Assembly: GCA_937927515.1 (NCBI GenBank)
Contig: CALBDO010000005.1
Coordinates: 71,665-135,664, forward strand
Length of the DNA stretch: 64,000 nucleotides
Source: Candidatus Kapaibacterium sp.
GTDB taxonomy: Bacteria; Bacteroidota; Ignavibacteria; Kapaibacteriales; UBA2268
Direction of reading: 5' to 3'
The position numbers and the translations under genes are program-made. Below, in pieces: positions 21,034-62,477 of this stretch (position 1 is the first letter of the stretch; each line of letters begins with the position of its first letter). The notes beneath the pieces were generated by a model. The model had not been told where the DNA came from. It searched no databases and was given only the letters and a program-made list of their open reading frames with translations.

Positions 21034-21055
21034 TTTCCACTTATTGAAAAGGATT

Positions 21056-21817
21056 ATGAAAAAGGTGTCTTCTTGGTGTGTTATCGGATTGTTTGCCTTG
21101 ATATTTCAATTTTGTACACAACCTTCTGAACTTGATGAGCCAACAAAAATATCGCCGAATGACAGAACAAAGGCGAGAATTTATCCGAACATTTATTACA
21201 TATCTATAGCTGAAAATGGAGTTGAAGATGCAGAATACCCACAATTCGAACAGAAGTTTAAAAGTAGTAAAATCGAAATATTTGTCGACACTCTGTATCC
21301 AACTCCATTGATTTGGTTTAAGGTTTATTTAGAAAGAAAAAGGTTCGAATATCACGACAAAGAATTTCAACGACTTAAAATTAAAAGTTTAAACTTTAAC
21401 ATTGATTCTTTTCCAATCTTGGGTGTGCCCTTGCCATTGAAGATGAGTAATTCGTCTAACTCCTGGTTGAAGATTAATTTAGCCAGAGGACCCAAAAACA
21501 ACTACGATACAATCATAGACCCAACGGTTGAACCCAACTACTTCGAAATTGGTTTTATTTACAACAAATCATACCGTGAAATCTGGGCAAATGGCTATGG
21601 AAAAATCTTTAGCCAGCGTTTTACTTTGTCTCAAAGGGATACAACAGTCGTCGACTCTGTCTTAAAAACTCGTTACGATACAGTTTGGATAAACAACAAT
21701 CCCCACATAAAAAAAGTTGAATATTGGGAGATAAAAGAAATAAAGTTGAAAATCGAGGAAATTACTTCATTCCCAGACTCATTAATGTTGAGTTTTAAAT
21801 TCAGATTGAAATATTAA
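21056..21817 (+). CDS. Hypothetical secreted protein or lipoprotein
   Basis: Internal ATG at 21056, with signal peptide MKKVSSWCVIGLFALIFQFC. I recognise no conserved motifs. Confidence 0.5.
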   Translation: MKKVSSWCVIGLFALIFQFCTQPSELDEPTKISPNDRTKARIYPNIYYISIAENGVEDAEYPQFEQKFKSSKIEIFVDTLYPTPLIWFKVYLERKRFEYHDKEFQRLKIKSLNFNIDSFPILGVPLPLKMSNSSNSWLKINLARGPKNNYDTIIDPTVEPNYFEIGFIYNKSYREIWANGYGKIFSQRFTLSQRDTTVVDSVLKTRYDTVWINNNPHIKKVEYWEIKEIKLKIEEITSFPDSLMLSFKFRLKY

Positions 21818-21842
21818 AGTCTATAAATTTTAAGGAGGTTGT

Positions 21843-24377
21843 ATGAGAAGAGTTTTTCTTATTCCTGTATTGGGAATATTAATTTCTTGGTTTTCTGGTT
21901 CCCTTGTTGCGCAAGTTGATGTACCAAATCCACCGCAAGGCTTGAGTATTAAAACTAATGAAAATTTGGACGGGACTTTCGACGCAAACTTATCCTGGTT
22001 CATTAATAATAACAATTTTGCTCCGTTTCCCCATGGTTTCCATATTTACCAAACAATTTTTCAAAAAAATATTGTCAGCACTCAATTACTGGATGAGATT
22101 AGCGCTAAGCAAGGCGTTTACCAGTATTCCTATGTGGTTAAGAATCTAAAACCTGGAACTTACGAATTTTACGTAACATCATTCATCGGTAAAGCCGAAA
22201 GCAGACCAAGCAACACAGTGCGGGTTGTTTTAGAAAAACACGAGCCATTCATTAAAATTATTTCTCAGCCACCAATATATGCATTTGTTGGGGTAAAATA
22301 TCTTTATCAAATTCAAGTTCATTCAAATATCAATTGTCCAATCGATGAATTTGGTTTTGATGGAACTCCACCAAAAGGAATGACCATTTCGAAAAAGGGT
22401 TTAGTTGAATGGGTTCCTCAAGATGTTGGAGAATATGAGGTGACTGTTCGTGCTGGTACCTCTTGTAAAATCAATATAGAACCAGCACGCCAGACATTCA
22501 AAATTATTGTTAACAAGCAAGGTCACAATGACCAATCATATATTAGAATTGTGAGCAAACCACCTACAAAAGGTATTGTGGGGGTGCCAATTTATTACCA
22601 AGTAGTTGCAGAGTCGAATGTTCGATCTCCTATAAAATTCAAACTTTCCGATTGCAATATGGATGGTGCTGTTATTGATGAAAACACAGGTTTACTTACT
22701 TGGTCGCCCAAAGAAGTTGGTCAATTTGGTTGTGTAGTTGTTGCATACTTATCTTGCGATACAAACATAGTTGCTATTCAAAAACTGTGCATTGAAATTC
22801 AAGCTGCTCAAGAGCATCCGAAACACTGTGTACATTTAGTTGGAAGTGCAAAATTTGCGGATGACACTCCTGTTTCAAACGGACTTGTTTATGCTTGGAA
22901 GTTAGATGCTAATGATAACCAAACCAATGTAGTTTTTAAGACATTCATAAAACATGGTGTGTTTGAATTTTATTTGCCCGTTGGTACTTATGTTTTTGAA
23001 TTTTATGGTGAAATGTTTGAACATGTGTTCTATCACAATGCAAAAAGATTTGTTGATGCTGTACGCATAAAGTTTGAATGCATCGACAACGAAACAATCG
23101 AAAAGACCCTCGAGGTCGTCCTTCCTGAAAAACCAAAACCTATTTTCTATACTGTTTCTGGTTATGTCAATTCTATGAAAGATGATGCACCCATATTAGC
23201 ACTCGTAGAGTTTATTCCTGTTGAATTTTTAAATTATCCAGAGAAGAGGATAAACTATGGAGCATTTTCGAATTTTGTTGCCAAAACAGACAAGGATGGC
23301 CATTATGAAATTCTGCTCCCAAATACATTTTCGTATATTGCTCATGCCATCCCTTTAAACAAAGAAGAATTTTATGACCAATACTATCAGCTTTCCAGTT
23401 CCCCTTATTTAGCCGACATTATTGAATTAAAAAACGATAGGGGTGATATTAATTTTCGCTTGAAACCTATTGAAAAGCCAAACAACGGTTTTACTGGAAT
23501 TGTAGTCGATAAGGATAGGAATCCAATTCAATCTCGTGTTCTGGCAATACTTGTCAGACCAAAATTCCAAAACAACATTCCAAAAGATGCTATTATTAAT
23601 GTTGTCGAAACCAATGAAAATGGTTATTTTAGGTTTGTTAATTTGATACCCGGGGATTATGTTCTTCTTTCAATTCCAAAGGATAAGCATTTTGCCCCTG
23701 GTTATTACAAAATGAATGATTTTGCAACTCTTAGTTGGAAAGAAGCTACCATTGTAACTGTCGATGATGTAATGATACAGATGATTTTCGAAATCAAACA
23801 CCGTGAGCGTCTGCAGTTGAAGGGATTAGTTAGAATTGAAGGTCAGCTTTTTGATGTAACTGGTTTAGCCAAGCAAGACAATAAACCACAATGTGATGAA
23901 ATTCCTCTGGACCAAGCACTAGTTGCCGCTATGAACATAGACGGAAACGTAATCGAATACTTTGTTACAGGTAAAGATGGAAAGTTTATTCTCGAAGAAC
24001 TTCCACCAACTACCTTTAAAATTTTTGTGACTAAAGTAGGGTATAAGGAACTTGAAGCCACTTACAGTGGCGACTATGAATCGAACTTTGCAATACGTAG
24101 TAATTTCTACCTCCAAAAAGAAGTAAGTGAAGTGCAAGAAGGAGGAGAATATGCCATAAATTTGAATGAGAATAATCTTATTCTAAGCTTTGATGATGGT
24201 CTCGAACTAAGAAATGTGCGAATTTTTGATGTGTTTGGAAATAGTTTACCTATTCAAATTTTTGCTAATGAAAAAATATTATCAATCGACATTAGTTCCT
24301 ATCCCTCTGGCGTTTACTTTGCCAATATAATTACTACTAAGGGGATTTTACAAACAAAATTTGTAATTGTTAGATAA
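21843..24377 (+). CDS. T9SS-secreted surface protein with cadherin-like (He_PIG-type) Ig domains and carboxypeptidase-regulatory-like domains
   Basis: AAGGAGG RBS and a signal peptide. Two ~65-aa Ig units matching P..G..Y.Y...P.GM.I...GL.EW.P...G.Y.V. Transthyretin-like segments (NENGYFRFVNLIPGDYVL). A canonical T9SS type-A CTD ends it (...SYPSGVYFANIITTKGILQTKFVIVR). Confidence 0.85.
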   Translation: MRRVFLIPVLGILISWFSGSLVAQVDVPNPPQGLSIKTNENLDGTFDANLSWFINNNNFAPFPHGFHIYQTIFQKNIVSTQLLDEISAKQGVYQYSYVVKNLKPGTYEFYVTSFIGKAESRPSNTVRVVLEKHEPFIKIISQPPIYAFVGVKYLYQIQVHSNINCPIDEFGFDGTPPKGMTISKKGLVEWVPQDVGEYEVTVRAGTSCKINIEPARQTFKIIVNKQGHNDQSYIRIVSKPPTKGIVGVPIYYQVVAESNVRSPIKFKLSDCNMDGAVIDENTGLLTWSPKEVGQFGCVVVAYLSCDTNIVAIQKLCIEIQAAQEHPKHCVHLVGSAKFADDTPVSNGLVYAWKLDANDNQTNVVFKTFIKHGVFEFYLPVGTYVFEFYGEMFEHVFYHNAKRFVDAVRIKFECIDNETIEKTLEVVLPEKPKPIFYTVSGYVNSMKDDAPILALVEFIPVEFLNYPEKRINYGAFSNFVAKTDKDGHYEILLPNTFSYIAHAIPLNKEEFYDQYYQLSSSPYLADIIELKNDRGDINFRLKPIEKPNNGFTGIVVDKDRNPIQSRVLAILVRPKFQNNIPKDAIINVVETNENGYFRFVNLIPGDYVLLSIPKDKHFAPGYYKMNDFATLSWKEATIVTVDDVMIQMIFEIKHRERLQLKGLVRIEGQLFDVTGLAKQDNKPQCDEIPLDQALVAAMNIDGNVIEYFVTGKDGKFILEELPPTTFKIFVTKVGYKELEATYSGDYESNFAIRSNFYLQKEVSEVQEGGEYAINLNENNLILSFDDGLELRNVRIFDVFGNSLPIQIFANEKILSIDISSYPSGVYFANIITTKGILQTKFVIVR

Positions 24378-36084: not shown

Positions 36085-38025
36085 TTACTTGGTTAAACTA
36101 ATTAGAAAATTCCATTCTTTGGTGTAATCAATTTTATTGTAATATTCTGTTTCTCTTTTAACACCAACAACTTTGTTCTTATCATCGTAAATTGGAACTC
36201 TTCGCACGACTGCAAGGGTTATTCTTTTTAATACTTTTTGAAAGTCAGATTCAGTAGAAATGCGTATCCATTGCAATATCTCGGAATACCAAAGAATTTC
36301 ATTATTGTCGCTAATTTCAAGATGAAATTCAATAGTATCGTTTAAGTCGTATCCATTTTCAAATTCGTTTTCAATTTGTATCTCATTTAAGTTGATTTTT
36401 TGAACATAGTTCTTTTTAAATGGGTTCATTTCGACATAAATTTTTTTCTCGACAGTTGAATTGTTAGAAGAAGTTTTTGAAGAATGCGAAAACTTATTAC
36501 CGTCCCAAAAAATTTGGTTGGAGGTAAAATCGAAATTGAAATGATATTTTTGGTTACTCGACGACCCGCTCAGTGATGCGTAGAAGTTACAATAAAATTG
36601 TTTTAAATGGGAATATTGTGATGATTGTTGTTGAACAGAATAGAAATTAATACCATTGAAATCAATGTAAGCATAGATTTTTTTTGCTTTTTCCAGCTCG
36701 CTTTTTGATGATACTGCTTCAAAATTGCCATCAGTACAATTCACTTTGTAAGTTTTGGAATCAATAAAAACAATTACTTCGCCATTGTATGATACTTTAT
36801 TAGGGTATTCATCAGTTTTGAAAGTCTCGACAGTTCCAGCAATTTTGCCATTTTCATAGTCAATTTTTTTAATTGTGACTTGGATTGGTGGCATAAATAA
36901 GGCAAGGTCTTTCATTGCCGAAACCATAAAATTTGGGATAAGTTCAGAAGCTTGGGATTCAACACATTCCTTGTCGATATATGGATATCCTCGATTTCTG
37001 AATATAGAGTTGAAATATCCTTTATCTTTTGCCATTTTCACACGACGGCCACTTGGAAAAACTTTGTAGAAAGTGAATTCCTCCTCTACGTATTCCAGAT
37101 TTTCTAATTTAGGCGAGCTATATTCCTTCTCGCCATTTAATGGTTTAATAGTGGAATATCCTTTGCCGGAAATAGTTTCACCACTAAAAAAATTTGAATT
37201 TGTAAACAAGGCAAGTTGTTCATGAACTTCGCGAATAGTTTTTGCTTTTTGTATATTTTCCAAAAGAAATGGGTCTGGCTGGCCGTCTGCATAGTCTTTT
37301 ATCCAAGATGGATTGAAAAGTTCTTCGTATGGGTCTGGGCTGCCAAAAGCCCAACCCCAACTTAATCCAAATGGAGCTGCATGGCTATCATTTCGTACAT
37401 GAGGTGGGCAAGCCATGTCTGCTAGATTATGCAAAACCTCTCCAAAGCATCGCCAAGCTTTTGCAAGAAGTTGTCGCTTCTTCTGTGGGTCTGGTTCTTG
37501 AATTGCTTGAAGCATATATAATTTTCCATTCTTAGCGCTCAATTTATTTGCTTCTCCTTTCGGTGTATCGCCAAGTGCCCATTCAATTGCATCAATACCC
37601 GGGTTTGGATAGAAACCTTCCCAATATGTTCCACGATTTGAAAGATATTTCTTACCATCCTTTAATCCTTTCGGGTCGAAAAAATGTCGAACCGCAGCTG
37701 GGACTTCGGGCTCGTCGGCAGACATACCGCCATGAGCTATCCATTCTCCAGGTGTTAGGTTCAACTCACTCTCTCCAGTAGTTGATTCAAAAAGACCTAA
37801 ATTACTTACACCCTGACCTTTTAACTTATTCAAATTGTCTGTCAGTTTTAGTTGAAAACCTAAATCAAAAGGGTCCTTTGTGGACATTAGTTTCTCTAAA
37901 TATTTTACAAATTCACTGTTAAAGGTCGTGTGTGATTTAGTATTTTCATAACTAATTGAAGCAAAATGTAGTGCAACGTATGTTGCAAAACCAGCTATCA
38001 ACATTATTATATTTCTTGTTTTCAT
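36085..38025 (-). CDS. Zinc-dependent phospholipase C / P1-nuclease superfamily domain protein with a ~370-aa unknown C-terminal region
   Basis: Signal/TM at the N-terminus. HFFDP aligns to HFYDP, and AWRCFGEVLHNLADMACPPH aligns to the Bacillus cereus PLC segment LGLSLHYLGDVNQPMH. Both are Zn-ligand segments. Confidence 0.6.
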   Translation of the reverse strand: MKTRNIIMLIAGFATYVALHFASISYENTKSHTTFNSEFVKYLEKLMSTKDPFDLGFQLKLTDNLNKLKGQGVSNLGLFESTTGESELNLTPGEWIAHGGMSADEPEVPAAVRHFFDPKGLKDGKKYLSNRGTYWEGFYPNPGIDAIEWALGDTPKGEANKLSAKNGKLYMLQAIQEPDPQKKRQLLAKAWRCFGEVLHNLADMACPPHVRNDSHAAPFGLSWGWAFGSPDPYEELFNPSWIKDYADGQPDPFLLENIQKAKTIREVHEQLALFTNSNFFSGETISGKGYSTIKPLNGEKEYSSPKLENLEYVEEEFTFYKVFPSGRRVKMAKDKGYFNSIFRNRGYPYIDKECVESQASELIPNFMVSAMKDLALFMPPIQVTIKKIDYENGKIAGTVETFKTDEYPNKVSYNGEVIVFIDSKTYKVNCTDGNFEAVSSKSELEKAKKIYAYIDFNGINFYSVQQQSSQYSHLKQFYCNFYASLSGSSSNQKYHFNFDFTSNQIFWDGNKFSHSSKTSSNNSTVEKKIYVEMNPFKKNYVQKINLNEIQIENEFENGYDLNDTIEFHLEISDNNEILWYSEILQWIRISTESDFQKVLKRITLAVVRRVPIYDDKNKVVGVKRETEYYNKIDYTKEWNFLISLTK

Positions 38026-44031: not shown

Positions 44032-44066
44032 AAGGACAAGGAGCGTTTTGCTCCTTGTTCTTTTTT
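44032..44066 (+). terminator. Rho-independent terminator
   Basis: aggacaaggagc-gtttt-gctccttgt hairpin followed by TTTTTT. Confidence 0.7.
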
Positions 44067-44099: not shown

Positions 44100-44172
44100 G
44101 GCTAGGTAGCTCAGTTGGTAGAGCAGTGGACTGAAAATCCATGTGTCGGCGGTTCGATTCCGTCCCTAGCCA
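44100..44172 (+). tRNA. tRNA-Phe (anticodon GAA)
   Basis: GGCTAGGTAGCTCAGTTGGTAGAGCAGTGGACTGAAAATCCATGTGTCGGCGGTTCGATTCCGTCCCTAGCCA is a canonical cloverleaf. The anticodon loop CTGAAAA holds anticodon GAA. Confidence 0.85.
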
Positions 44173-44299
44173 CAAAAATGATAACACATCGTACGACAAT
44201 TCATTTAAAATTTTAAACTAATTACTGTTTGTAAATTGATTTAAATGTTAATTTTGCTTAATTTAAAGTTATTATTATGGGAAAATTTTTGAGAAATAA

Positions 44300-45427
44300 A
44301 TGGAAAGTATATATAATGCTGAAAATTCCGGGAGTGGGGAAAAATCTCCGCAAACCCCCAAAAAACGTAACCCTTACTACTATGAAATTCTGAAGCAGAA
44401 ACCCCCGGCACAACGAGGTGTAGAATCCCGCTTCTACAACATTGACATTATCGGCGAATTTGATGTTGGAGAAATTAAATATAATGGTGAAAAAAAGAGC
44501 GATGTTTCGGACTTGGTTGAAGTTATGTTTAAAGCCAAAAGAAAGAAAATATATAAAAATCCCAAGAAGTTATCATTTTTCAATTATGAGTATGTCATTG
44601 TAGAAGTTGATAATGGGTTTGATATAGCAACTGTTATTTCATTTGGAAGAGAAGCCGAGGATAAATGGAAAAAAATTTATAAGAAGGAGGATGTTCAGTT
44701 TTCCATAGTTCGTTTCGCCACAGAAAAAGATATGCAAATCTTTGAAAAAAACAGACAAGAAGAACCACTTGTAGTTGAAACAACTAAAGAGCTTGCAAAA
44801 AAATACAAACTTGAAATCAAAGTTACCGAAGCTGAATGGCAACTCGACCGACAACGGCTAACTATCTATTTCAGTGCACCTCAGAGAGTAGATTTTCGTG
44901 AACTCGTAAAAGACTTGGCTAAGATCTATAAAACCAGAATAGAGCTTCGTCAAATCAGTACTCGTGAGGAGGCTCGTAGAATTGGTGGGATGGGTCCCTG
45001 TGGATTTACTCTTTGTTGTTCGACTTTTTCTTGTCAGAGTTGCCACGTAACATTGGAACATGCCCGTATTCAACGGCTTGCAAATAACGTTGCAAAGTTG
45101 AGTGGTTACTGTGGACGGTTGAAATGCTGTATATTGTATGAGCACGATGTCTACCTCGAAGAATATAAAAACTATCCACCTATGTTTTCTGTTGTTGAAT
45201 TACCAGATGGAATTGCTCGAATCCACAAAATTGATGTATTTTCTCATAAAGTGCATCTTCTTTTGGAAAACACTGGCTACATTAAAATCGTCCCAAAAAG
45301 TGAGATTGATAAATTGCTAGCTCAAGGGAAAGTTCGACCTCCAGATAAGGTTGTTGAAGAACAACTGTATGACGACGATAGGAACTTAACTCCAGAAGAC
45401 ATTTCGCTGCTCGAGAACGATATATAA
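44300..45427 (+). CDS. PSP1 C-terminal domain protein (RicT/YaaT-like) with a Lys-rich N-terminal extension
   Basis: Conserved PSP1 core (...TREEARRIGGMGPCGFTLCCSTFSC...GRLKCCILYE...) with its cysteine cluster. Confidence 0.7.
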   Translation: MESIYNAENSGSGEKSPQTPKKRNPYYYEILKQKPPAQRGVESRFYNIDIIGEFDVGEIKYNGEKKSDVSDLVEVMFKAKRKKIYKNPKKLSFFNYEYVIVEVDNGFDIATVISFGREAEDKWKKIYKKEDVQFSIVRFATEKDMQIFEKNRQEEPLVVETTKELAKKYKLEIKVTEAEWQLDRQRLTIYFSAPQRVDFRELVKDLAKIYKTRIELRQISTREEARRIGGMGPCGFTLCCSTFSCQSCHVTLEHARIQRLANNVAKLSGYCGRLKCCILYEHDVYLEEYKNYPPMFSVVELPDGIARIHKIDVFSHKVHLLLENTGYIKIVPKSEIDKLLAQGKVRPPDKVVEEQLYDDDRNLTPEDISLLENDI

Positions 45428-45435
45428 TTTGATAC

Positions 45436-45894
45436 ATGGCTTTAATATTTTTGGACAAGCGAGAAGTTTGCAATTATCTACGCTATCACGAAAGTGGTAG
45501 ACAATACATATTTTTTTCAACTTTCCCAATACACAAAAGGTTTCTACTTAAAAAATTTTCAATTTTTTTATTATGTTTTGGTTTTATTTGTTTTGTTATT
45601 TCTTTGGTTTTTCAATATTGGGTAAATGCTTTGGTGTATCCACAAAGTTTGAGTGGCAAACCGTATTTTAGTTTGCTTACTGCTATTCCATTTTCTTTCG
45701 AATGTACATTGGCTCTTGTAGGAGTGGTGCTTTTTTTAAGATTTGTCTTGGTATGCTTTACGAGAAATCAAAGCCTGCCAAGCGAGGTTAAACAAAATTT
45801 GCATAAACTTGATGAAAATTGTGTTATGATTTATTCTCAAGCCAATTTCATCAATAATGTTAATGAACCAGTTGTGAACCAAAATACACAATAA
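45436..45894 (+). CDS. Small two-TM membrane protein, DUF3341 / ACIII ActD-like (tentative)
   Basis: Two TM helices. The motifs FSTFPIH and SGKPYFSL..IPFSFECTL resemble my recollection of the ActD/DUF3341 pattern FSPFPVH...GGKPHFSL..IPITFELTVL. Confidence 0.45.
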   Translation: MALIFLDKREVCNYLRYHESGRQYIFFSTFPIHKRFLLKKFSIFLLCFGFICFVISLVFQYWVNALVYPQSLSGKPYFSLLTAIPFSFECTLALVGVVLFLRFVLVCFTRNQSLPSEVKQNLHKLDENCVMIYSQANFINNVNEPVVNQNTQ

Positions 45895-45897
45895 TTT

Positions 45898-46491
45898 ATG
45901 TTTAATAGGATTGTTTTAAATGTGTTGCTTGCTCTCTCACTTATGTTATTTTTAATTTTGCTTGGTTTAAACTTTGGCTTAATTAGTATAAAGAAAGATT
46001 ATTTATTACAGGTCATCTCCGATATGGATAATCAAAAAACCCCAAGCTTGGATTACTTTGCTAATATAAGTAGCATAAATTTAAATTTATTGCCTCTTGA
46101 AGAGAATTTCCCGACCAGAAAATTATTTTATGAATATGCACCCCATGAGTATTCTATACCCTCAAAGATTTACATAAATCAACTTGGTGATGATGTTTTT
46201 GTTTTAGAACGAGGAAGAATGCTTTTTGGTAGATTTTGTGTTCCTTGTCACAACACAGATGGTAAAGGAAATGGTCCGATTATCACTGATGTTGTTTTGG
46301 CCGAAGACGAAGAAGGTTTCCCGCCTCCGAAGGATTTAACTAGCGAAAATACAAGGAAATTGACCGATGGTCGTTTATTTCATATATTGTCAGCGGGACA
46401 GAATCTAATGTTCTCTTTTCACGACAAAATGAACGATTTTGACAAGTGGTGTGTAATAAGTTACATAAGAAAATTACAATCAAAGAAATAA
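45898..46491 (+). CDS. Membrane-anchored monoheme c-type cytochrome (class I, ActE-like)
   Basis: N-terminal TM anchor, CVPCH heme-binding motif, then the class I pattern G.G......P.L........DG.LFHI..AG...M. Confidence 0.8.
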   Translation: MFNRIVLNVLLALSLMLFLILLGLNFGLISIKKDYLLQVISDMDNQKTPSLDYFANISSINLNLLPLEENFPTRKLFYEYAPHEYSIPSKIYINQLGDDVFVLERGRMLFGRFCVPCHNTDGKGNGPIITDVVLAEDEEGFPPPKDLTSENTRKLTDGRLFHILSAGQNLMFSFHDKMNDFDKWCVISYIRKLQSKK

Positions 46492-46503
46492 ATTGGAGGT
46501 TTT

Positions 46504-49500
46504 ATGAGAAAGTATGTTTGTTTATTAGCAATCTCTATTTGTACGCACTTTTTTTCATTTTCTCAACCCAATCCTAATTACCTCTTCTTTTTTAATGGAA
46601 ATGACATCACTTCTGTCGTGCCTGTATTCGGTAGTTCTACTTACTTAATTGGTTCTCGGTTTAGTGGTTTAGGTATTTTCCACTTGGATTCTATGAAATA
46701 CTTAGGTTTAATTCAAAAAATATCAGCTCCAATTCCAAGTCACAATATCTTAGCTTTGAGAAAATTTTCGAATGATGTAGTTTGGATTTGCACCGACAAA
46801 GGTTTGGTACAAGTCCGCAGCAACCAATATACTATATTCGATTCTCGGAATTCTCCTCTTCCCTCCGATATTGTAAACGACATTTACATTGATGCACTGG
46901 GTATTTGGTGGATTGCTACGGACCGTGGTCTTGTCTCTAAAAACGATACAGTCTGGACAGTGTATACTCCAAGTAACTCTGGCATACCATCCGAGAAGGT
47001 CTTCCACGTAAATGTTGACCCTGTGGGTAATGTCTGGGTGGCTACCCCCTTTGGTTTGGGAATGTATGATAGGTCGGATTGGTATGTTTTCAACACTTCA
47101 AACTCTGGTTTGCCGGACAATTTCATAACATTCATTGAATTCGATAATTTTAACAATTCTAAATGGATAGGTACCCTTCAAGGTGGATTGGTTCATTGGG
47201 TAGGAAATAACTTTTTCGTTTACGACACTAGCAATTCTGCTCTTCCAAGTAATTTGGTTACTTGCTTTGCTTTCGATACTGCGCACAACAAGTGGGTCGG
47301 CACATCCGAAGGTTTGGTTTATATCTCTCCTTCTGGCTGGCAAGTCTTTAATACCAGCAACTCTGGATTATCAGACGATTTCATTAATTTTATCCATGTC
47401 GATGCCCTTAATCGGAAGATGATTTGCACAAGAAATAAGTTAACTGTTATTCACGACACAAATTTTGTGATAATAAGTTTTGAAAATTCCAAACTTCCAA
47501 GTAATTATATACAAAAAGTGGTGGAAGGTATCGACCTTGTAAAGTGGATTGCAACTCCCGATGAGTTAGTTTCTTATGATGGCGATAATTGGACTGTTTA
47601 TAATTCTTTGAACTCCCCCATAACACACCAAATCAATGATATAGCGATTGATAGTGATAACAATTTGTGGGTTGCTACCGACTCGGGATTGTTTGTCCGA
47701 AGATTTAAAACCAATGATTGGCTTTCGTATTACTACGACACCTTAGGTTTGATAAGTAGCAGAGTAACCAAAGTGCTTCCCACCACTCTTGGGGTTTGGA
47801 TTGGCACCGATTCTGGGTTAGTGCTTTATAATGGTGGCAACTGGATAAGATACGACACCACGTACGGTGCTAAATTTAATGGTATTATTACTTCTTTGAG
47901 TTCAAAGATGGTTGAAGACAGTATTGGTACTTATGAAAGGATTTATGTTGGGCTTGGCTACGAAGGTATTGCAATATTTGAAAGAGATACAGTAAGATTT
48001 ATTGACGATACCAATTCGCCATTTTCTTTGATTTACATTACTGATGTCAAAGAAGATATCTCGGGTAAGTTGTTTGTAGGCTCTTTGGACCAAGGACTCT
48101 ATACTTACGATTCTCTTTGGTTGGTGCATAACCCTCTTACTGGCAGTTTTCCCGGCTTTTCCGTGAAAAGCATTACTTTCGACAGGTTCAATAGACCTTG
48201 GGTAACGACTTTGGCTGGTGGAATTTGGACCCAAATTAACGACACAACATCCATTGTCATTACAGAGGATGGATATCCATTTTATACTAATGAATTCAAC
48301 GATGTGTTTGTAGATTTATCGAACAACAAATGGATTTCAACTTCATATGGTCTGTATGTTTTTAATGAAGACACTATCAAACCAGAATTAAAATTAAAGC
48401 CTTACGATTTTGAAGTTTGCCAAGATAATATTTTCACATTGAGTTTTTATTCTTTCTTTTTGTTTAGAGAGGGGAATAGTTTTTTGGTAAAACTAAGTGA
48501 TACCACAGGTAGATTTGATACAACAATTATTATTGGTTCGATACAATCGAGGAGCAGTCGACCGATTAGATGCTATATACCCAAAATCACCTCTCCCAGC
48601 ACCAAATACAAACTTCAAATAGTTTCTACAAATCCACCACTGATTTCACATCCATCTGGTATGATGGAGCGCTTAGTGGTTCGTCCACTTCCTGTTCCTA
48701 AAATAAGTGGTGATTCTGTGATTTGCTCATCCGAAATAGCCAAATTATGGGCAATTCGCCAAGGAGTTGGTTCGGACCTTTGGACTTTCGTTTGGAGAGT
48801 TGATGGGGGAGAATTGCTATCGCCCCCAACTAATGATACAATTTTGGTGAGATTTCAAGGCGTATCCTATGGTACAGTAGTTTTAAATGTTTACAATTCC
48901 TATGGTTGTGTCGATTCAACATCTGCAAAAGTATGGTTGTCCAATCCTCCTGGGAAAATCCTTTATGGTCAGAACCGAGCTTGTGCTGGCGATGCGTTCA
49001 TTTATTCCACAACTGATACATCTAACATAAGAAACATCTGGACCGTTGTTAATGGTACTTTGGTGAAAAAGCTTGCAAATAACGTCGTTATTGTTCGTTG
49101 GGATAATTCAGGAACTGGTTATGTTAAACTCAAAAGAGTAAATCTTCTGGGTTGTGCTGATTCTATAAGTTTGAAAGTTGATATCTTTCCGACACCTACG
49201 GCAGAATTTGCTGGCAAATCGGAGGTTATGGTCGAGGAAATAGCGTATTACATAGCTAAAAGAAAAGAATCGAGCACTGCTAACAAGTGGAGTGTCGTGA
49301 ATGGAATTATTGTCGGGCCTAGCGATGGCGACACTCTTGTAGTAGGTTGGCCAAATGGTGGTTTTGGTAAAGTGAAACTATTACAGCGTACTCCATCTGG
49401 TTGCTCGGATTCGTCTGAAAAAATTGTAAGAGTTTTTGAACACTCTAAACTTGCTGGCGACACTTTGGTTTGTGAAAACTCCGAAACATACTACGAAGCC

Positions 49501-50151
49501 ATCTCTAACCTCGGAGCGAATAACCAATGGTATGTTACTAATGGTACAATTACATCCAATCCACAAAATCGTAGAGTTTGGGTTCGTTGGGGTGCTCCTG
49601 GAACTGGTCGTGTGAAACTAGTTCAAACGGTTCCAAATACTTTCTTCAAAGACTCTTTTGATGTTGTCGTAAAAATCGCTGCTGTTCCATCCAAACCCTT
49701 TATTGTCGATAGTGGTGGATATTTATATTCTAGTTCTCCATTTGGCAATCAATGGTATTGGAATGGACAAATGCTTTATGGTGATACCAATAGAACAATT
49801 GTTCCGCTACGTACAGGCTATTACACTGTTAAAGTTAAATCTGCTCCAAATTGCGAAAGTGAGTTTTCAGACCCATTCTACTTTGTCAGTGGTGTGGATG
49901 ATGAAGCAAGCGGTGTTGTTATTTACCCAAATCCATCATCTGGAGTAGTATTCGTTACCTTGTCCGAGGATATCGTATGTGATAACATCATTGTGAAGGA
50001 CCTCCTCGGAGTCGAACTACTTAGACAAAGCTTTGCAGAAATTTCCCAGAATAAATATTTAGACCTATCGAATTTAAGTACTGGAACGTATTTAATCACA
50101 ATGAGGATAGGAAACAAAGAAATTACAAAAAGAGTCGTTCTTATTAAGTAA
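46504..50151 (+). CDS. Large T9SS-secreted protein with two-component-regulator-propeller (Reg_prop) repeats, four tandem ~85-aa Cys-containing domains, and a type-A CTD
   Basis: GGAGG RBS and a signal peptide. There are at least eight Reg_prop-like repeats (W[IV][AG]T..GL......W.V[FY][NT].SNS.LP.). Residues ~740-1080 contain four repeats of the pattern G..V/AC.......Y....W.V.NG......D.L.V.W...G.G.VKL....GC.DS. The C-terminus is VVIYPNPSSGVVFVTL...GTYLITMRIGNKEITKRVVLIK. Confidence 0.85.
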   Translation: MRKYVCLLAISICTHFFSFSQPNPNYLFFFNGNDITSVVPVFGSSTYLIGSRFSGLGIFHLDSMKYLGLIQKISAPIPSHNILALRKFSNDVVWICTDKGLVQVRSNQYTIFDSRNSPLPSDIVNDIYIDALGIWWIATDRGLVSKNDTVWTVYTPSNSGIPSEKVFHVNVDPVGNVWVATPFGLGMYDRSDWYVFNTSNSGLPDNFITFIEFDNFNNSKWIGTLQGGLVHWVGNNFFVYDTSNSALPSNLVTCFAFDTAHNKWVGTSEGLVYISPSGWQVFNTSNSGLSDDFINFIHVDALNRKMICTRNKLTVIHDTNFVIISFENSKLPSNYIQKVVEGIDLVKWIATPDELVSYDGDNWTVYNSLNSPITHQINDIAIDSDNNLWVATDSGLFVRRFKTNDWLSYYYDTLGLISSRVTKVLPTTLGVWIGTDSGLVLYNGGNWIRYDTTYGAKFNGIITSLSSKMVEDSIGTYERIYVGLGYEGIAIFERDTVRFIDDTNSPFSLIYITDVKEDISGKLFVGSLDQGLYTYDSLWLVHNPLTGSFPGFSVKSITFDRFNRPWVTTLAGGIWTQINDTTSIVITEDGYPFYTNEFNDVFVDLSNNKWISTSYGLYVFNEDTIKPELKLKPYDFEVCQDNIFTLSFYSFFLFREGNSFLVKLSDTTGRFDTTIIIGSIQSRSSRPIRCYIPKITSPSTKYKLQIVSTNPPLISHPSGMMERLVVRPLPVPKISGDSVICSSEIAKLWAIRQGVGSDLWTFVWRVDGGELLSPPTNDTILVRFQGVSYGTVVLNVYNSYGCVDSTSAKVWLSNPPGKILYGQNRACAGDAFIYSTTDTSNIRNIWTVVNGTLVKKLANNVVIVRWDNSGTGYVKLKRVNLLGCADSISLKVDIFPTPTAEFAGKSEVMVEEIAYYIAKRKESSTANKWSVVNGIIVGPSDGDTLVVGWPNGGFGKVKLLQRTPSGCSDSSEKIVRVFEHSKLAGDTLVCENSETYYEAISNLGANNQWYVTNGTITSNPQNRRVWVRWGAPGTGRVKLVQTVPNTFFKDSFDVVVKIAAVPSKPFIVDSGGYLYSSSPFGNQWYWNGQMLYGDTNRTIVPLRTGYYTVKVKSAPNCESEFSDPFYFVSGVDDEASGVVIYPNPSSGVVFVTLSEDIVCDNIIVKDLLGVELLRQSFAEISQNKYLDLSNLSTGTYLITMRIGNKEITKRVVLIK

Positions 50152-50187
50152 GTTTATTTTAGTTGAATTTGTTAATTTTGTGTTAGA

Positions 50188-50276
50188 GGAGAGTTGCCGG
50201 AGTGGTTGAACGGGGCGGTCTCGAAAACCGTTGTCCCGATGACTCGGGACCGGGGGTTCGAATCCCTCACTCTCCG
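50188..50276 (+). tRNA. tRNA-Ser (anticodon CGA), long variable arm
   Basis: GGAGAGTTGCCGGAGTGGTTGAACGGGGCGGTCTCGAAAACCGTTGTCCCGATGACTCGGGACCGGGGGTTCGAATCCCTCACTCTCCG, with anticodon loop CTCGAAA. Confidence 0.8.
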
Positions 50277-50281
50277 CTTAA

Positions 50282-50365
50282 GCCCGGATGGCGGAACTGG
50301 TAGACGCGCTGCGTTCAGGGCGCAGTGGCTGCAAAGCCGTGCAGGTTCGATTCCTGTTCCGGGCA
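50282..50365 (+). tRNA. tRNA-Leu (anticodon CAG), long variable arm
   Basis: GCCCGGATGGCGGAACTGGTAGACGCGCTGCGTTCAGGGCGCAGTGGCTGCAAAGCCGTGCAGGTTCGATTCCTGTTCCGGGCA, with anticodon loop TTCAGGG. Confidence 0.8.
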
Positions 50366-50374
50366 CTTCACAAA

Positions 50375-52653: not shown

Positions 52654-54078
52654 TTATATTAGTTTACGCAAGATGTATTCGTAAGCAGATTTTAATCTTT
52701 CGTCGAATAGAAGATTTCTCTCCATTGTATTCAAGGCATGCAATACAGTGGTGTGGTCACGATTGCCAAAATGCCTTCCAATTGTCTCGAGGGTCGCATT
52801 AGTCAGTTCTTTGCAAATGTACATTGCTAACTGACGGGGTTCGACAAGTTCCTTTTTACGAGATTTAGACTCTAAGTCTGACGGATTTAAGTTGAAATAA
52901 TGAGCAACTGCACTTTTAATTTTGTCTATAGTGATGATTTTTGAGGTTCGTATATGTTTTGTACGGAGAATATCGCGTACAAGGTCGATGCTGGGTTTTT
53001 TGTTTCCGAGTGCAACTTGAGCAACCAAACTTATAATAACTCCTTCTATTTCACGCACATTAGTAGTGACATTTTGAGCAATATATTCAATCACCTCCAA
53101 AGGTAAATCTATTCCTTCATTTTCACTTTTCTTTCGGGCTATAGCTATTCTTGTTTCTAATTCTGGTGGTTCAATGAAAGCCAAGACACCCCATTGAAAA
53201 CGGCTAATCAGTCGCTCGTCCAAGTCTTTTAAATCCTTTGGGGCTTTATCGCTGGTAAGAACAATTTGCTTACCAGATTGGTGAAGATTGTTGAATGTAT
53301 GGAAGAAATGGTCTTGTATTTTCCCTTTATTTTGAAAAAATTGTATATCGTCTAATAATAGAACATCGACACTTCGGTATAATTGAAGAAATTCGTTCAT
53401 ATTATTATTTTTTATTGCTTCGATAAAGTCGTTTGCGAAATTTTCGCTTGTTGAGTATAATACTTGTACATTGGGATGATGGATTAAAATGTAATTTCCA
53501 ATTGCTTGAAGTAGATGAGTTTTTCCCAAGCCAGAATTTCCATATATGATTAATGGATTGAAGCGAGTTTGCAAAGGATTTTTAGAGATTGCTAATGCAG
53601 ATGAATAGGCAAATTCATTACTATCGCCGACGACAAAGTTGTCGAAGGTATAATTTGAAACAAGGTTTGGGTTATAATTAAGTTTTTGAATTCGGGAGAT
53701 TCGAACTTGTTCTTCTGTGCGAGTATTGCTACTTGGAATTTTGATTTTGGACAAATCTGGTTGGTTTGTATCGAGAACAACTTGATATTTAAGTTTTATG
53801 TTTTCTCCGAATAATTTTTGAATACCAGTATAAATCAAACTATAGTAATGCTCGTCCAACCACTCGCAGTAAAATTGTGATGGTACTTCAACGATAAGTT
53901 CTGTTTGCTCTATTTTGATAGGCTTTATTGGGGCAAACCAAGTTCGGAAGATATGAGTTGAAACATTATTTTTAATGAAACGAAGAAACTTTTTCCATTT
54001 TGATGTTAGACTTTCCTTTTTAATTTCAATATTTTGTCCTGCCTCTGTAATAGTTTCTTGCAAAAAGTCTTTTTCCAT
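52654..54078 (-). CDS. dnaA: Chromosomal replication initiator protein DnaA
   Basis: AAA+ Walker A YGNSGLGKTHLLQAIGNY. The C-terminal DNA-binding signature ...NRDHTTVLHA... is present. 474 aa. Confidence 0.92.
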   Translation of the reverse strand: MEKDFLQETITEAGQNIEIKKESLTSKWKKFLRFIKNNVSTHIFRTWFAPIKPIKIEQTELIVEVPSQFYCEWLDEHYYSLIYTGIQKLFGENIKLKYQVVLDTNQPDLSKIKIPSSNTRTEEQVRISRIQKLNYNPNLVSNYTFDNFVVGDSNEFAYSSALAISKNPLQTRFNPLIIYGNSGLGKTHLLQAIGNYILIHHPNVQVLYSTSENFANDFIEAIKNNNMNEFLQLYRSVDVLLLDDIQFFQNKGKIQDHFFHTFNNLHQSGKQIVLTSDKAPKDLKDLDERLISRFQWGVLAFIEPPELETRIAIARKKSENEGIDLPLEVIEYIAQNVTTNVREIEGVIISLVAQVALGNKKPSIDLVRDILRTKHIRTSKIITIDKIKSAVAHYFNLNPSDLESKSRKKELVEPRQLAMYICKELTNATLETIGRHFGNRDHTTVLHALNTMERNLLFDERLKSAYEYILRKLI

Positions 54079-54384
54079 TACTTCCTTTCCTCCAATCGTA
54101 AACAGACAGGTTCGAAGATTAAAATTTAAATTCTATAATTAATGAAAGACAAATTTGAAAGAATTTTATAAAAAAATCAAATAAAATTTCTATCATTTTT
54201 AAAAATTACCTTTGTTTGTTTGTATGTATTGAAAATAAAGAACTTCCAAATAAAATTTGTTTAAACTTTATTAATATTCTGTAAGTTTTTATTTAATCTT
54301 TTGAAAATTAAGATAATTAAATTGGCATAGTGGATTTATATAAGTTTTATAAAGAAATATTTTAAGTGTTTGGAATTAAATAAC

Positions 54385-57579: not shown

Positions 57580-58506
57580 TTAATAAAACTTTACTTTTTT
57601 GTGGTATTCTGGCAATACACAGCCTACACAAGCTGGATAATGATGGGCTAAGCGTGCACAAATTTGTTTCGAACTTTCTTCCATTCCGTTGGCTACAAGA
57701 CGAAAGGCATTAAGTCTTTTAATTTTGATTAATTTATTTTTAAATTGACGTGTCAAATTGTTTAGAATAATTTTATTCAAGTTTGTTCCAAAAAGATATA
57801 GAGAATTTATTTCAATTGAGAACTCGTTACTTATTTTATTTACATTCTGCTCTATTAATTTTGGAATATCTTCTTCACTGTTATATTTTATTAGGTTGTA
57901 GGAGTAAAACTCTTCACCTTTTATAACGCTGTAATCGATAAAATTATCTGATAAATTGAACAATCCAACGAAATTGTCTCTTTCCTCTGGATAATTATAT
58001 AAAAAGCAATTCTGGGCTGAAATTTGGCTTATTTCAATTCGTTGCACAGTTTTATTACACTGTTTAGCTATTGATTTGATAGTTTGAAAAATTTTCTTTG
58101 GTATAATTGCTGCAAGGAAGTGTATTCTTTCTTTTCGTGGTTGTAGTTCAAACAAAAAAGTGGGAAAATCCTCGGGATTGAATTGCGGGTAATTGTGTTT
58201 AATCTCGAAATCCAATACAGTCATAATTTCATCTCTGGAGAGTTGTGGTCGACCTGGAAATTGTGTGATAATTAAATATTCCATAGGGATAGAAATCGAG
58301 ATAAATTTTGCGTCATTTGAAATGTCTTTAATTGTCGTGTAGAGTTCTTCTAATGCTTGCTCATTTGTTGGATTTTCTAGATTCTCTAAATCAATAGGTA
58401 AAGAAGTTGTGGACAAATCTAAAAGTTTCAACCCTTTATTCGCTTTTTCTAATAAAGTGATATACGTCCTTGTTGGTGAAAAATACATTGAAAGGACTTT
58501 TTCCAT
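57580..58506 (-). CDS. Hypothetical protein
   Basis: 308-aa ORF tightly packed between the HDOD gene and rsmD. No family recognised. Confidence 0.55.
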   Translation of the reverse strand: MEKVLSMYFSPTRTYITLLEKANKGLKLLDLSTTSLPIDLENLENPTNEQALEELYTTIKDISNDAKFISISIPMEYLIITQFPGRPQLSRDEIMTVLDFEIKHNYPQFNPEDFPTFLFELQPRKERIHFLAAIIPKKIFQTIKSIAKQCNKTVQRIEISQISAQNCFLYNYPEERDNFVGLFNLSDNFIDYSVIKGEEFYSYNLIKYNSEEDIPKLIEQNVNKISNEFSIEINSLYLFGTNLNKIILNNLTRQFKNKLIKIKRLNAFRLVANGMEESSKQICARLAHHYPACVGCVLPEYHKKVKFY

Positions 58507-59748: not shown

Positions 59749-61065
59749 TCAAAATACTCGTTCCCAAAAGGCTGAATTAAACTTAGGGTCTTTATATTTT
59801 AAAAATGTTTCTAAATTTTGGAATGATTTTCTAAACACAAAAGGCTTCATTCTGGCGTCTTTTGCTGGGTACAAAGCACCTCCGAATTCAACCACCATTT
59901 CGTCGGTTTTGTCCAAGACATTGAATAATGATTGGTTGATAGGAAAGTCTATTGCTACAGTTACCCCATCTCTTGGAAATGATAAGTAACCCGGAGGTTC
60001 AAAATTCCCAAATGTCTTCAAAACGGTTAGAAATGAACCTAAGTTGGCTTTTTTAAATTCATTGAATATCGAATGGAGAGTTCTTTTGGCATCTTCTCTT
60101 GGAATAACAAACTGGTATTGGAGAAACCCTTTTCTGCCGTAGAGATAATTCCAATTTCCAATTGCATCGAGAGGATAAAAAAAAGCATCATAGTGCACTA
60201 ACTTTGATTCTATTTTGTTGAATTGTTTTCCATAGTAAATGTAGTTGAAAACAGAGGTGGAAAATTTATTTATTAATGAGAAAGGTAGTGCAAAAGGAAT
60301 ACCCAGCAATGTTTCTTTATATCGCTGCTCAAACCCTGCGTCAATATGATTTGCTCTTTGGTAGATGCCTCGCACAGTGTTTTCACCTCCATTAGTTACA
60401 TCAACCCAAGCAACTGTGTATTCGTAATGTCTTTCTGAAGAAGTGTTTATTTCAAAAAACTCATCTAGTGAATTAAATTTCAAGTATTCCAAATTTAGAT
60501 ACTCACTTGGAATTTTTTTGAGAGCGATTTCAGCACTGAGAATTAATCCTGTTAAACCTAATCCGCCTATCGTGGCTTTGAAAAACTCGGTATGATTGTT
60601 ATTAGAGCAAAGAAGGACATCGCCATCTGAACGAAGTAATTCAAAATTTTTAACATAATGTCCAAAAGAGCCAGCATTGTGGTGATTTTTCCCGTGGACG
60701 TCATTTGCGATTGCTCCTCCGATGGTCACAAATTTTGTACCAGGTGTAACTGGTAAAAACCAACCGAAACGAACAATAAGTTTCAAAATTTTTGCAAGTG
60801 ATACTCCGCTTTCACATTTTAAAAGCCCTCTGTCTTTATCAAAAAAAATGAAATGATTCAATCCAGAGGTGTCGATTAAAGTGCCATTTTGAACCAAGCA
60901 AACATCACCATAACTTCTTCCTAATCCGAAAGGTAATACCTTTGAGTTGTCATAGAAGATGTCGGTTTCATTACGCCAATTAATTTTCCTTACCTGGCTT
61001 GCACTTAATTTTGGGTATAAACCCCAAGAATGATATTTTTTCATAATATTATCGCCGAAATCCAA
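59749..61065 (-). CDS. FAD-dependent oxidoreductase, DprE1-like (decaprenylphosphoryl-beta-D-ribose oxidase homologue)
   Basis: GLGRSYGD and [35 protein letters not shown] match the M. tuberculosis DprE1 segments GLGRSYGD and [45 protein letters not shown] is identical. Confidence 0.8.
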   Translation of the reverse strand: [438 protein letters not shown]

Positions 61066-62477
61066 ATGATTATCATTAAAACTAAAGTGAAAAGAAAAGT
61101 TGGATTTTTAAGAATAACGAGTATTGGGTCGTGGTCTATACTCTTGTTCTTTGCATAGTTCCATAGCATTGCCAGCCAAAACAGCAAAAGAAAAGCGTCG
61201 AACCAAAGTAGGGAGGGGGATTTATAAAGTGTGTTTACTTTTTCACTATTAATGTAGAGGATTAACACAATTATCGATGCAAATGCACTATTGATTCCAA
61301 GGATTTGAAAAAAGTTCGACGAATCGATATTGTATGGCCTACCATACATATTTTTTTCAGAGTTAGCGATTAAATTTAACTCCACATACCGCTTTAAAGT
61401 CGCCAATGACAAAAAGAAAAAGATAGAAAATGCAAGTAACCAGTTAGATACTGGTATTCCAGTTGCAAGACTACCAGCTATAATTCTTAACACGTAGAAT
61501 GTTGAAAGTAAAAAAATATCCGCTATAGGTATGCGTTTTGCAAAAAATGAATAAACAAAATTCAACAAGACATACATTATGCACGTAAGTGTGAATTCAT
61601 TACTGACTGAAAATGCAACCACAATACCTATCGTAAGTAATAAAAAACAAACGAAAAGACCAGTGTATGCTGAAGTCACTCCGCTTGGAATTGGTCTGTG
61701 TTTCTTTGAGGGATGATTTCTATCGTTTCTAATGTCAACAATATCATTAAAAATGTAGACGGAGGAAGCGACAAAAGAAAACGAAATAAAGGCTAAAATG
61801 GACTTACCAATAATGGAAATGTTGTTGAATTCGTGTGCCAATAATAATGGCAAGAAAATCAATAGGTTTTTTATCCATTGATGAACTCTGATTAGTCTGC
61901 TAAAGTCCTCAATTTTGGTTCGATAGTTTAGTAAGTTACCAGAGAAATTTTTTCGTTTCTGAAGAAGTAAATTGATAATTCTTGAATTGGAAACAAGTAT
62001 AGATTTTTTTGCAATTTTCCAAATTGGCAAGTCGGCTATGGAATCTCCAATGTAGATGAAGTTGCCTTTGCCAAATTTTCGCTCGAGAAATTTAGCTTTA
62101 TTTTTGCCTTTCAAATTAAAGTTGTAATCAGAACCATACACTTCGTCGAAAAGTTTCAAATGATTATTAATGTCTTGTGCTATTTTGATATTCGAGGCGG
62201 TAACAAGGACTAATCTTCTCCCTTTTTCCTTTTCTTGTTTCAAAAAGCTTAGCACTTCTTCACGATATGGTAATTCGCCATATTCTAATTGCACATTTTC
62301 GGATAATTTTTCTTTTAAGTATTGCTTGGATTTAAGGAGCCAAAAAGGGGTAAGAAAAATGGCAGTGGGTTTTTTTTTAAGATACAATACAATCTGCTCG
62401 ACAAGTATATCTGTTGATATCAAAGTGTAATCGAGGTCTACACAAATTATCTCTGCTTCTTTTTGGTTCATTTTCAC
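61041..62477 (-). CDS. Fusion of a HAD-superfamily phosphatase (N-terminal) and a UbiA-family polyprenyl-phosphate phosphoribosyltransferase (C-terminal; DPPR-synthase-like)
   Basis: HAD motif I DLDYTL and motif IV GDSIAD in residues 1-190. The UbiA part (HQWIKNLLIF; NDIVDIRNDRNHPSKKHRPIPSG; LRIIAGSLATGIPVSNWLL; LKRYVELNL) closely parallels M. tuberculosis Rv3806c (NDVLDVEADRLHPTKRFRPIASG, etc.). Overlaps the DprE1-like gene by 25 nt. Confidence 0.8.
   Translation of the reverse strand: MKMNQKEAEIICVDLDYTLISTDILVEQIVLYLKKKPTAIFLTPFWLLKSKQYLKEKLSENVQLEYGELPYREEVLSFLKQEKEKGRRLVLVTASNIKIAQDINNHLKLFDEVYGSDYNFNLKGKNKAKFLERKFGKGNFIYIGDSIADLPIWKIAKKSILVSNSRIINLLLQKRKNFSGNLLNYRTKIEDFSRLIRVHQWIKNLLIFLPLLLAHEFNNISIIGKSILAFISFSFVASSVYIFNDIVDIRNDRNHPSKKHRPIPSGVTSAYTGLFVCFLLLTIGIVVAFSVSNEFTLTCIMYVLLNFVYSFFAKRIPIADIFLLSTFYVLRIIAGSLATGIPVSNWLLAFSIFFFLSLATLKRYVELNLIANSEKNMYGRPYNIDSSNFFQILGINSAFASIIVLILYINSEKVNTLYKSPSLLWFDAFLLLFWLAMLWNYAKNKSIDHDPILVILKNPTFLFTLVLMIIIWISAIIL

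Follow-up and report, generated by a model that had tools for sequence, protein, structure and literature searches.

A probable split alternative complex III gene cluster in Candidatus Kapaibacterium, with a giant secreted propeller gene linked to actE

The stretch of DNA analyzed here (64,000 nucleotides, nt, of contig CALBDO010000005.1 of Candidatus Kapaibacterium sp.; "the window" below, with positions counted from its first letter) carries at 44300-50151 a four-gene cluster encoding a PSP1/RicT-family protein, ActD- and ActE-like subunits of alternative complex III (ACIII), and a very large propeller protein with a type IX secretion system (T9SS) sorting domain. Bacteroidota and related groups rely chiefly on ACIII as their quinol:cytochrome c oxidoreductase, and the small subunits of the complex are the parts least understood. 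We favor, with moderate confidence, the reading that the window holds the distal half of a split ACIII gene cluster, in which actD, actE and the propeller gene were relocated behind PSP1 and actABC lie elsewhere in the genome. The novelty is the conserved linkage of actE to a giant T9SS propeller gene, in intact as well as split clusters, rather than a categorically new module. This linkage is old and hitherto unreported.

The uncoupling of actDE from actABC is a natural experiment on which subunits need co-expression. Given the persistent linkage, the propeller protein is also a concrete candidate partner for the unexplained function of ActE, which in Flavobacterium johnsoniae has a role in growth beyond electron transfer to the aa3 oxidase. 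There is a warning for annotation as well: a lone ActD/ActE pair on a contig of a metagenome-assembled genome (MAG) proves neither the presence nor the absence of ACIII.

The four-gene cluster and its relatives

The genes of the cluster (lengths in amino acids, aa; identities from hidden Markov model, HMM, and PDB sequence matches) are as follows.

44300-45427, + strand: PSP1/RicT-family protein, 375 aa (HMM match)
45436-45894, + strand: ActD, 152 aa (HMM and PDB match)
45898-46491, + strand: ActE, monoheme cytochrome c, 197 aa (HMM and PDB match)
46504-50151, + strand: Reg_prop/T9SS propeller protein, 1215 aa (HMM match)

A reading made earlier from the sequence alone had described this layout, with gaps of 8, 3 and 12 nt in the list of open reading frames (ORFs), between a terminator plus tRNA-Phe and a tRNA-Ser/Leu pair. 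The coordinates are confirmed, and the HMM and PDB matches agree with the gene identities proposed then (PSP1, ActD-like, CVPCH cytochrome, T9SS cargo). The 45436-45894 product does match DUF3341/ActD (PF11821, 50.7 bits against a cut-off of 25.7), and among all PDB sequences its best match is 6f0k_D, the ActD of Rhodothermus marinus ACIII (3.8e-7), followed by 6lod_D and 6btm_D. Its close relatives are very few, the named one being a Candidatus Kapaibacteriota MAG. For ActE, PF13442 (32.7 bits) and PF00034 (27.4 bits) both score over cut-off, there is a single CVPCH motif, and PDB ranks 1, 2 and 4 are taken by 6btm_E (3.4e-9), 6f0k_E and 6lod_E, from the ACIII of F. johnsoniae, R. marinus and Roseiflexus castenholzii, respectively. 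ActE is 35-46% identical to the ActE of complete act operons.

Related loci were collected by sampling the contexts of ActE homologs at falling identity and by scanning JGI metagenome contigs with an ActE alignment, and were classified with purpose-built HMMs. Their arrangements are listed here.

Type I: tRNA-Phe, PSP1, ActD, ActE, propeller, tRNA-Ser, tRNA-Leu (the window, L005, L006, L008, L009, L011, L016-L021)
Type II: ActA, ActB, ActC, ActD, ActE, propeller (L014, from GCA_964464375.1; L022, L024, L025; also the fragment L034)
Type III: ActA-E, then an ActF-like gene, propeller absent (L010, L013, L027, L029)
Type x: ActA-E, ending at ActE (L012, L028, L036/L037)

The type II clusters carry the argument. 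In these, an end-to-end ortholog of the propeller protein (1205-1210 aa) is encoded directly after actE, with order and strand as in the window; the L014 protein aligns with that of the window over its full length (1205 vs. 1215 aa) at 30% identity (E 9e-160), with every module aligned. Because type II has the propeller gene right after actE, the pair in the window can be understood as the relocated 3' portion of a known respiratory cluster. The earlier statement that such a combination has no obvious precedent thus does not hold, given that the same gene directly follows actE in the actABCDE clusters of L014, L022, L024 and L025. Orthologous ActD, ActE and full-length propeller, in the same order and strand, are common to the window and type II. 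However, the window has no actABC upstream, has a PSP1 and tRNA frame that is absent in type II, and has a short ActE-propeller spacer (1-15 nt with GGAGG in type I, vs. 99-199 nt in type II). The type II layout is shared by at least three lineages that have diverged deeply (ActC 47-50% identical) and whose flanking genes are mutually unrelated, so that the act-propeller adjacency itself must be conserved and old.

Type I comprises at least 11 loci besides the window, all with actDE and the propeller gene behind PSP1 and next to dnaA, and with tRNA-Ser/Leu after the propeller gene wherever the contig continues that far. The four-gene order also occurs in a Candidatus Kapaibacteriota MAG and in a Logan contig, but with the same flanks, and so says little alone: type I synteny spans everything from tRNA-Phe to PPK2 (MFS, YitT, DnaA, DUF2851, orotidine monophosphate decarboxylase and PPK2). 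The type I ActE sequences form one clade by neighbor joining (bootstrap 139/200), which lends moderate support (70%) to a single split event behind the group.

Under the reading that we favor, the ancestral order would have been actA-actB-actC-actD-actE and then the gene of a ~1200-aa T9SS double-propeller protein, as in the relatives. In the Kapaibacteriota clade of the window, this cluster would have been cut between actC and actD, and the actD-actE-propeller segment would have landed behind PSP1/RicT, where it would be read from the PSP1 promoter. ActD (with its transmembrane, TM, hairpin and coupling Glu) and ActE would still assemble with ActA, ActB and ActC encoded elsewhere in the genome, and the complex would pass electrons from menaquinol to a terminal oxidase. 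The link between the propeller gene and actE would then be one of co-expression, not of physical membership in ACIII. Joint relocation of D and E is plausible because ActD and ActE are fused in Ignavibacterium album and Melioribacter roseus (PMC3362086, PMC3534657). These fusions (IALB_1390 and Mros0042) show that D and E behave, structurally and in evolution, as a single unit in this superphylum, although in the window the two are separate ORFs, 3 nt apart and detached from actABC.

Some related loci deserve mention in their own right. Two ~400-aa ORFs with an ActE domain (L030 1275-2474 and L035 5490-6698) are probably ActD-ActE fusions like that of I. album, and a 641-aa protein (P0263) with NrfD and ActD Pfam domains is an apparent ActC-ActD fusion. 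In the type II and x clusters (L012, L014, L022, L024, L025, L028, L036), actE has no ActF-like gene behind it, in contrast to type III and the textbook actABCDEF; the ACIII of these lineages may work without ActF, or ActF may be encoded elsewhere.

ActD and ActE as subunits of the complex

ActD has been proposed to link the oxidation of quinol with the pumping of protons, and ActE takes electrons from the heme wire of ActA and hands them to an oxidase or a soluble carrier. The window protein is predicted to be a TM hairpin with both termini cytoplasmic, based on two hydrophobic segments (aa ~41-62 and ~80-106). An AlphaFold2 model, built on a 3-sequence alignment and with a mean predicted local distance difference test score (pLDDT) of 52, places helices at 32-67 and 80-112 at pLDDT 60-77; the remainder is poor. 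ActD proteins have a beta-alpha-beta motif at each end, which together build a four-stranded sheet on the cytoplasmic side; of such elements, the model shows strands at 12-17, 23-28 and 131-134 and a helix at 116-122, all of which are below 50.

Residues were compared between 11 type I sequences and 13 that are linked to ActABC. Glu89 in the second TM segment (nt 45700-45702) is invariant in both sets (11/11 and 13/13), and the periplasmic loop (YPQSLSGKPYF, aa 68-78; YP-x-x-LSGKP-x-F in type I) aligns to YPLNISGKPFF of 6f0k_D. In R. marinus, Glu122 of ActD, with 98% conservation, is next to the quinol pocket of ActC, the periplasmic loop of ActD touches ActB, and ActE's N-terminus is entwined with ActB (PMC5928083). 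In the ActE of the window, the heme site C114-V-P-C117-H118 (nt 46237-46251) and the axial Met171 (nt 46408-46410) are invariant, and type I retains each of the 22 columns with at least 85% conservation in the ActABC-linked set, including CxxCH, Met171 and D42-M43. The latter pair belongs to an SDMDNQ motif and directly follows the membrane anchor, which is an N-terminal hydrophobic helix (aa 5-28) in place of a lipobox. The same holds in low-GC canonical operons, whereas in the high-GC relatives L031 and L033 a lipobox Cys takes the corresponding place, immediately ahead of the conserved DM motif, and R. marinus likewise uses a lipobox Cys.

Thus, the window shares with the ACIII of R. marinus, F. 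johnsoniae and R. castenholzii (6F0K, 6BTM, 6LOD) the ActD hairpin, periplasmic loop and TM2 Glu, the membrane-anchored monoheme ActE with CxxCH and Met, and the adjacency of D and E in that order. It differs from them in that D and E are not beside actABC(F), actF is missing from the vicinity, and actE is followed by a T9SS propeller gene. ActD and ActE are most likely still ACIII subunits with partner genes elsewhere, as judged from these sequence comparisons. ActABC partners should still exist because the ActD Glu, the ActB-contact loop and the ActE columns have been kept despite ~35% identity of ActD.

An alternative is that type I lineages lost actABC altogether, and that ActD, ActE and the propeller protein, perhaps joined by PSP1, carry out an envelope function on their own, in which ActE would work with some other donor or acceptor. 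This is unlikely in our judgment. In its favor, actABC could be tied to no type I genome, and the shortening of the ActE-propeller spacer in type I relative to type II suggests tighter coupling after the split. Against it, the paper on the R. marinus structure (PMC5928083) reports ActD from ACIII exclusively. Further, the membrane Glu and ActB-contact loop persist in all type I members at ~35% identity, as does every invariant position of the ActABC-linked ActE, including the anchor-proximal DM. The propeller protein itself has no heme or redox motif, and its expected place, as T9SS cargo, is beyond the outer membrane and thus remote from the inner-membrane pair. The redox-linked envelope module first suggested for this cluster is therefore not upheld. 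The pair is the relocated 3' part of an ACIII cluster rather than a separate module, and all that stands of the suggestion is the old and unexplained linkage of actDE to the propeller gene.

Where the partner genes lie bears directly on this choice. As the earlier reading had noted, the 64-kb window holds no ActA, ActB, ActC or ActF (Pfam scans of all ORFs of at least 150 aa, plus six-frame searches with our own HMMs for ActA/B/C/F-like proteins). An oxidase gene is absent from it too. Likewise, actA/B/C/F are absent within 10 kb in every type I locus. A scan of GTDB genomes with the ActD alignment returned one relative only, on a contig already known, and so gave no view of whole type I genomes. 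Amino acid composition as a proxy for GC content did not discriminate among the ActC candidates, all of which appear low-GC. No duplicate full act operon was found in the searches made, and its existence in type I genomes is argued against, weakly, because Kapaibacteriota-named ActE matches lie only in the type I range. Specifically, the three matches named Kapaibacteriota or Kapaibacteriales are all at least 54% identical, and three more type I-range matches carry other names (two of them Ignavibacteria, one of these being L009). All contexts examined at 49% identity or more are type I, and there is no Kapaibacteriota-named match below that. ACIII is present in Kapabacteria (PMC6338057).

Several points weigh against a split cluster with functional partners elsewhere. 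The searches made linked actABC to no type I genome. A search with the L012 ActC gave none attributable to a type I genome among the matches listed, although these reach down to ~45% identity and leave out even known type III ActCs, so that this silence is uninformative. The three ActC contexts that were inspected (P0207, P0206 and P0213) are all ordinary A-B-C-D(-E) operons of other lineages (that of P0207 revealed the type II arrangement). A loop Asn present in 12 of the 13 canonical ActD sequences is lost in type I, conservation of the heme ligands is equally expected for a cytochrome with a new partner, and tree support for a single origin of type I is only moderate. In addition, the role assigned to the propeller protein is grounded in domain homology only, and the analysis turned up no cofactor, partner or regulator for it.

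It could also be asked if actDE is simply the decaying remnant of a broken operon, since no gene of the block evolves faster than that of ActD (34-36% identity, against 68-79% for DnaA). We give this negligible weight. The type I ORFs are intact in 12 of 12 loci, the ratio of nonsynonymous to synonymous substitution rates (dN/dS) is 0.2-0.37 in unsaturated pairs, and the key residues are invariant. The window compared with L005 gives 0.27 for ActD and 0.20 for ActE. Nor is the rate of ActD peculiar to type I. It is normal for the family, because the ActD proteins of the canonical operons L010 and L013 are only 38% identical (ActE 50%, ActC 63%). Purifying selection and the kept ACIII residues essentially refute decay.

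A different case is L026, a metagenome contig of 44% GC. Its ActE homolog (6315-6941) has no ActD or ActC in the 6.3 kb upstream and is possibly a genuinely solitary ActE-like cytochrome of another lineage.

The propeller protein and its linkage to actE

The propeller protein begins with a predicted signal peptide (aa 1-20) and ends with a T9SS type A C-terminal domain (CTD) at aa 1140-1212 (TIGR04183, 36.4 bits against a cut-off of 23; PF18962, Por_Secre_tail, 47.5 bits against 27). Between aa ~46 and ~625 there are ~14 Reg_prop blades with a period of ~42 aa, of which 11 scored significantly and 3 were read by eye at the expected spacing; these would form two 7-bladed propellers. The C-terminal half (aa ~630-1135) appears to consist of Cys-containing PKD_6-like modules and then an Ig-like module. 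Cys spacing and the PKD_6 match (sub-threshold for the window protein, above threshold for L014) are the sole basis of these assignments, because a BLASTP self-comparison of this half showed no internal repeats. A structure prediction of the propeller region made without an alignment reached a mean pLDDT of only 33. The 12 orthologs (1197-1215 aa) all have a hydrophobic N-terminus or signal peptide and eight invariant Cys, and none contains CxxCH; neither this nor any other redox motif is present in the window protein. Its dN/dS (0.11, window vs. L005) is the same as that of the neighboring MFS gene (0.11).

The best PDB sequence matches are the propellers of hybrid two-component system (HTCS) sensors, 3v9f and 4a2l. 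Like these glycan-sensing periplasmic sensors of Bacteroides (3V9F; BT4663, 4A2L), the window protein has Reg_prop repeats (53 bits) and ~14 blades. Unlike them, it has no Y_Y_Y domain above threshold, TM segment, kinase or receiver, and has instead a signal peptide, PKD_6-like modules and the T9SS CTD. Because of the sorting domain and the missing TM, kinase and receiver domains, we take it to be secreted and not a sensor kinase. Most simply, it would be a surface-displayed ligand-binding protein that is exported by Sec and then T9SS, with a glycan as the most likely ligand.

A second resemblance is to PorZ of Porphyromonas gingivalis, a component of the T9SS attachment complex, which is likewise a double propeller of Reg_prop type followed by a CTD (PMC5121618, PMC8545088). 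Consistent with this, the NCBIfam T9SS_PorZ model (NF052228) matches in six stretches. However, that the propeller protein is a PorZ-like structural part of the secretion system of this lineage, rather than cargo, is very improbable. The model score is 86 bits, far under the cut-off of 260, and the PDB sequence search returned 3v9f and 4a2l but no PorZ chain. The window protein is also ~450 aa longer, has PKD-like modules that are foreign to PorZ, and has a conserved genomic linkage to actE.

Perhaps the propeller gene and PSP1 sit beside actDE by phylogenetic inertia, with co-transcription incidental in a compact genome, an explanation that we regard as possible but doubtful. The entire type I region from tRNA-Phe to PPK2 is syntenic, so that conservation of the four genes is unspecific. 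The x lineages (L012, L028, L036) are close to L014 (type II) in the tree of ActE (bootstrap 145/200) yet have no propeller gene, type III operons do not have one either, and PSP1 is linked solely in type I. On the other hand, the actE-propeller adjacency is found in at least four deeply separated lineages with differing flanks, down to 30% propeller and 47-50% ActC identity, and it outlived the rearrangement that removed actABC. In general, gene order is seldom kept at such divergence in the absence of selection.

A stronger proposal is that, in this Kapabacteria/Ignavibacteria-related lineage, ActD, ActE and the propeller protein are a conserved functional unit that ties the ACIII respiratory branch to a T9SS surface protein, independently of ActABC in type I. 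We consider this quite unlikely on present comparisons. If true, display of a ligand-binding surface protein might, for example, be confined to times of ACIII-branch expression, or ACIII might be a periplasmic target of the propeller protein ahead of its export. In the literature searched, no paper links ACIII to T9SS or to a propeller protein.

The window holds another candidate T9SS cargo. At 19270-24377, an ECF (extracytoplasmic function) sigma factor gene (19270-19836) is accompanied by two ORFs without a Pfam match (19846-21033 and 21011-21817) and by a gene for an 844-aa CarboxypepD_reg/Por_Secre_tail-like protein (21843-24377), which together resemble a sigma/anti-sigma pairing tied to a T9SS cargo. 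The 844-aa protein also has a weak match (E 3.7e-7) to the propeller-family HMM.

PSP1, transcription signals and neighboring genes

The first gene of the cluster is a clear family member (PF04468, 103 bits against a cut-off of 27; RicT_YaaT NF041131, 221.5 bits against 70). Its product is a cytoplasmic, Cys-rich protein that includes the Cys-rich segment of the RicT/YaaT family, and its gene is under the strongest constraint in the cluster (dN/dS 0.04, window vs. L005). The likeness to RicT/YaaT of Bacillus subtilis lies in this strong model match, including the Cys-rich Fe-S region. The differences are that no ricA or ricF is nearby and that actDE follows, in a context limited to the type I clade. 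The reading from the sequence alone had suggested, as speculation, a redox-linked function that would take in the Fe-S-associated PSP1. Such a partnership is not upheld: the linkage is restricted to type I and sits inside the wholly syntenic tRNA-Phe-to-PPK2 block, and for that reason it is no specific evidence of shared function. Probably, the linkage is an incidental by-product of the relocation, with PSP1 as the landing site. The Cys-rich segment contains SCQSCH, the only CxxCH besides that of ActE among window ORFs of at least 80 aa. It is unlikely to be a c-type heme site, given that the protein is cytoplasmic and the motif falls in the region of the Fe-S Cys cluster.

The signals around and within the cluster are listed below.

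44036..44066, + strand: terminator of the upstream TonB-type outer membrane protein gene, read directly from the sequence; hairpin 44036-44058 (ACAAGGAGC-gtttt-GCTCCTTGT) plus T-run
44100-44173, + strand: tRNA-Phe(GAA), conserved upstream border of the type I block, with a TAATTTTG box ahead at 44080
44228..44256, + strand: candidate Bacteroidetes-type promoter; TTTG 44228-44231, TAATTTTG 44249-44256
46495..46499, + strand: GGAGG ribosome-binding site in the 12-nt ActE-propeller spacer, kept across type I loci
50173..50366, + strand: conserved downstream border; TAATTTTG box 50173-50180, tRNA-Ser(CGA) 50188-50277, tRNA-Leu(CAG) 50282-50366

The consensus for Bacteroidetes sigma-A is TAnnTTTG, and the promoter reading of the TAATTTTG motif depends on it. 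Identical boxes occur before tRNA-Phe, PSP1 and tRNA-Ser (44080, 44249 and 50173), at a density of three in 256 nt of intergenic DNA compared with a background of ~1 per kb. The PSP1 ATG is 51 nt downstream from its box, the TTTG is ~20 nt further upstream, and a box at -50/-51 of PSP1 is also present in the closer type I loci (L005, L006, L008 and L016). This pattern fits the use of a Bacteroidetes-type -7 promoter element in Kapaibacteriota. A scan with the sigma-70 consensus, by comparison, showed no enrichment (18 found vs. 20.9 expected).

The four genes are likely co-transcribed because the gaps are tight, GGAGG precedes the propeller ATG, and there is no promoter box or terminator between the genes. 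Consistent with the earlier proposal of an operon, nothing was found that would uncouple them: there is no intergenic TAATTTTG promoter-like box and no terminator-like site at the gene junctions, and the terminator-like matches within the cluster all fall inside coding sequence, with weak T-tracts. In all type I loci PSP1 and actD are closely packed, from an overlap to a gap of 8 nt. No terminator was found between the propeller stop codon and tRNA-Ser. An Rfam scan of the region yielded the three tRNAs and one sub-threshold match, to Plastid-psbl-rps4 (50223-50276, - strand, antisense to tRNA-Ser; 46.7 bits against a gathering score of 68), which is almost certainly a chance match via the structure of the tRNA.

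Downstream, a 306-nt intergenic region comes after dnaA (52654-54078, - strand; gene and spacer together span 52654-54384). Wherever the contig of a type I locus reaches dnaA, the actDE block is ~2.5 kb from it and, therefore, is probably close to the replication origin.

Elsewhere in the window, at 59749-62477 on the - strand, a gene for a HAD-UbiA prenyltransferase fusion (61041-62477) overlaps that of a FAD_binding_4 oxidase (59749-61065), an unusual pair that may act on a prenyl-phosphate sugar. Large ORFs without a Pfam match at E <= 0.001 are located at 2794-4494 (566 aa), 36085-38025 (646 aa) and 57580-58506 (308 aa).

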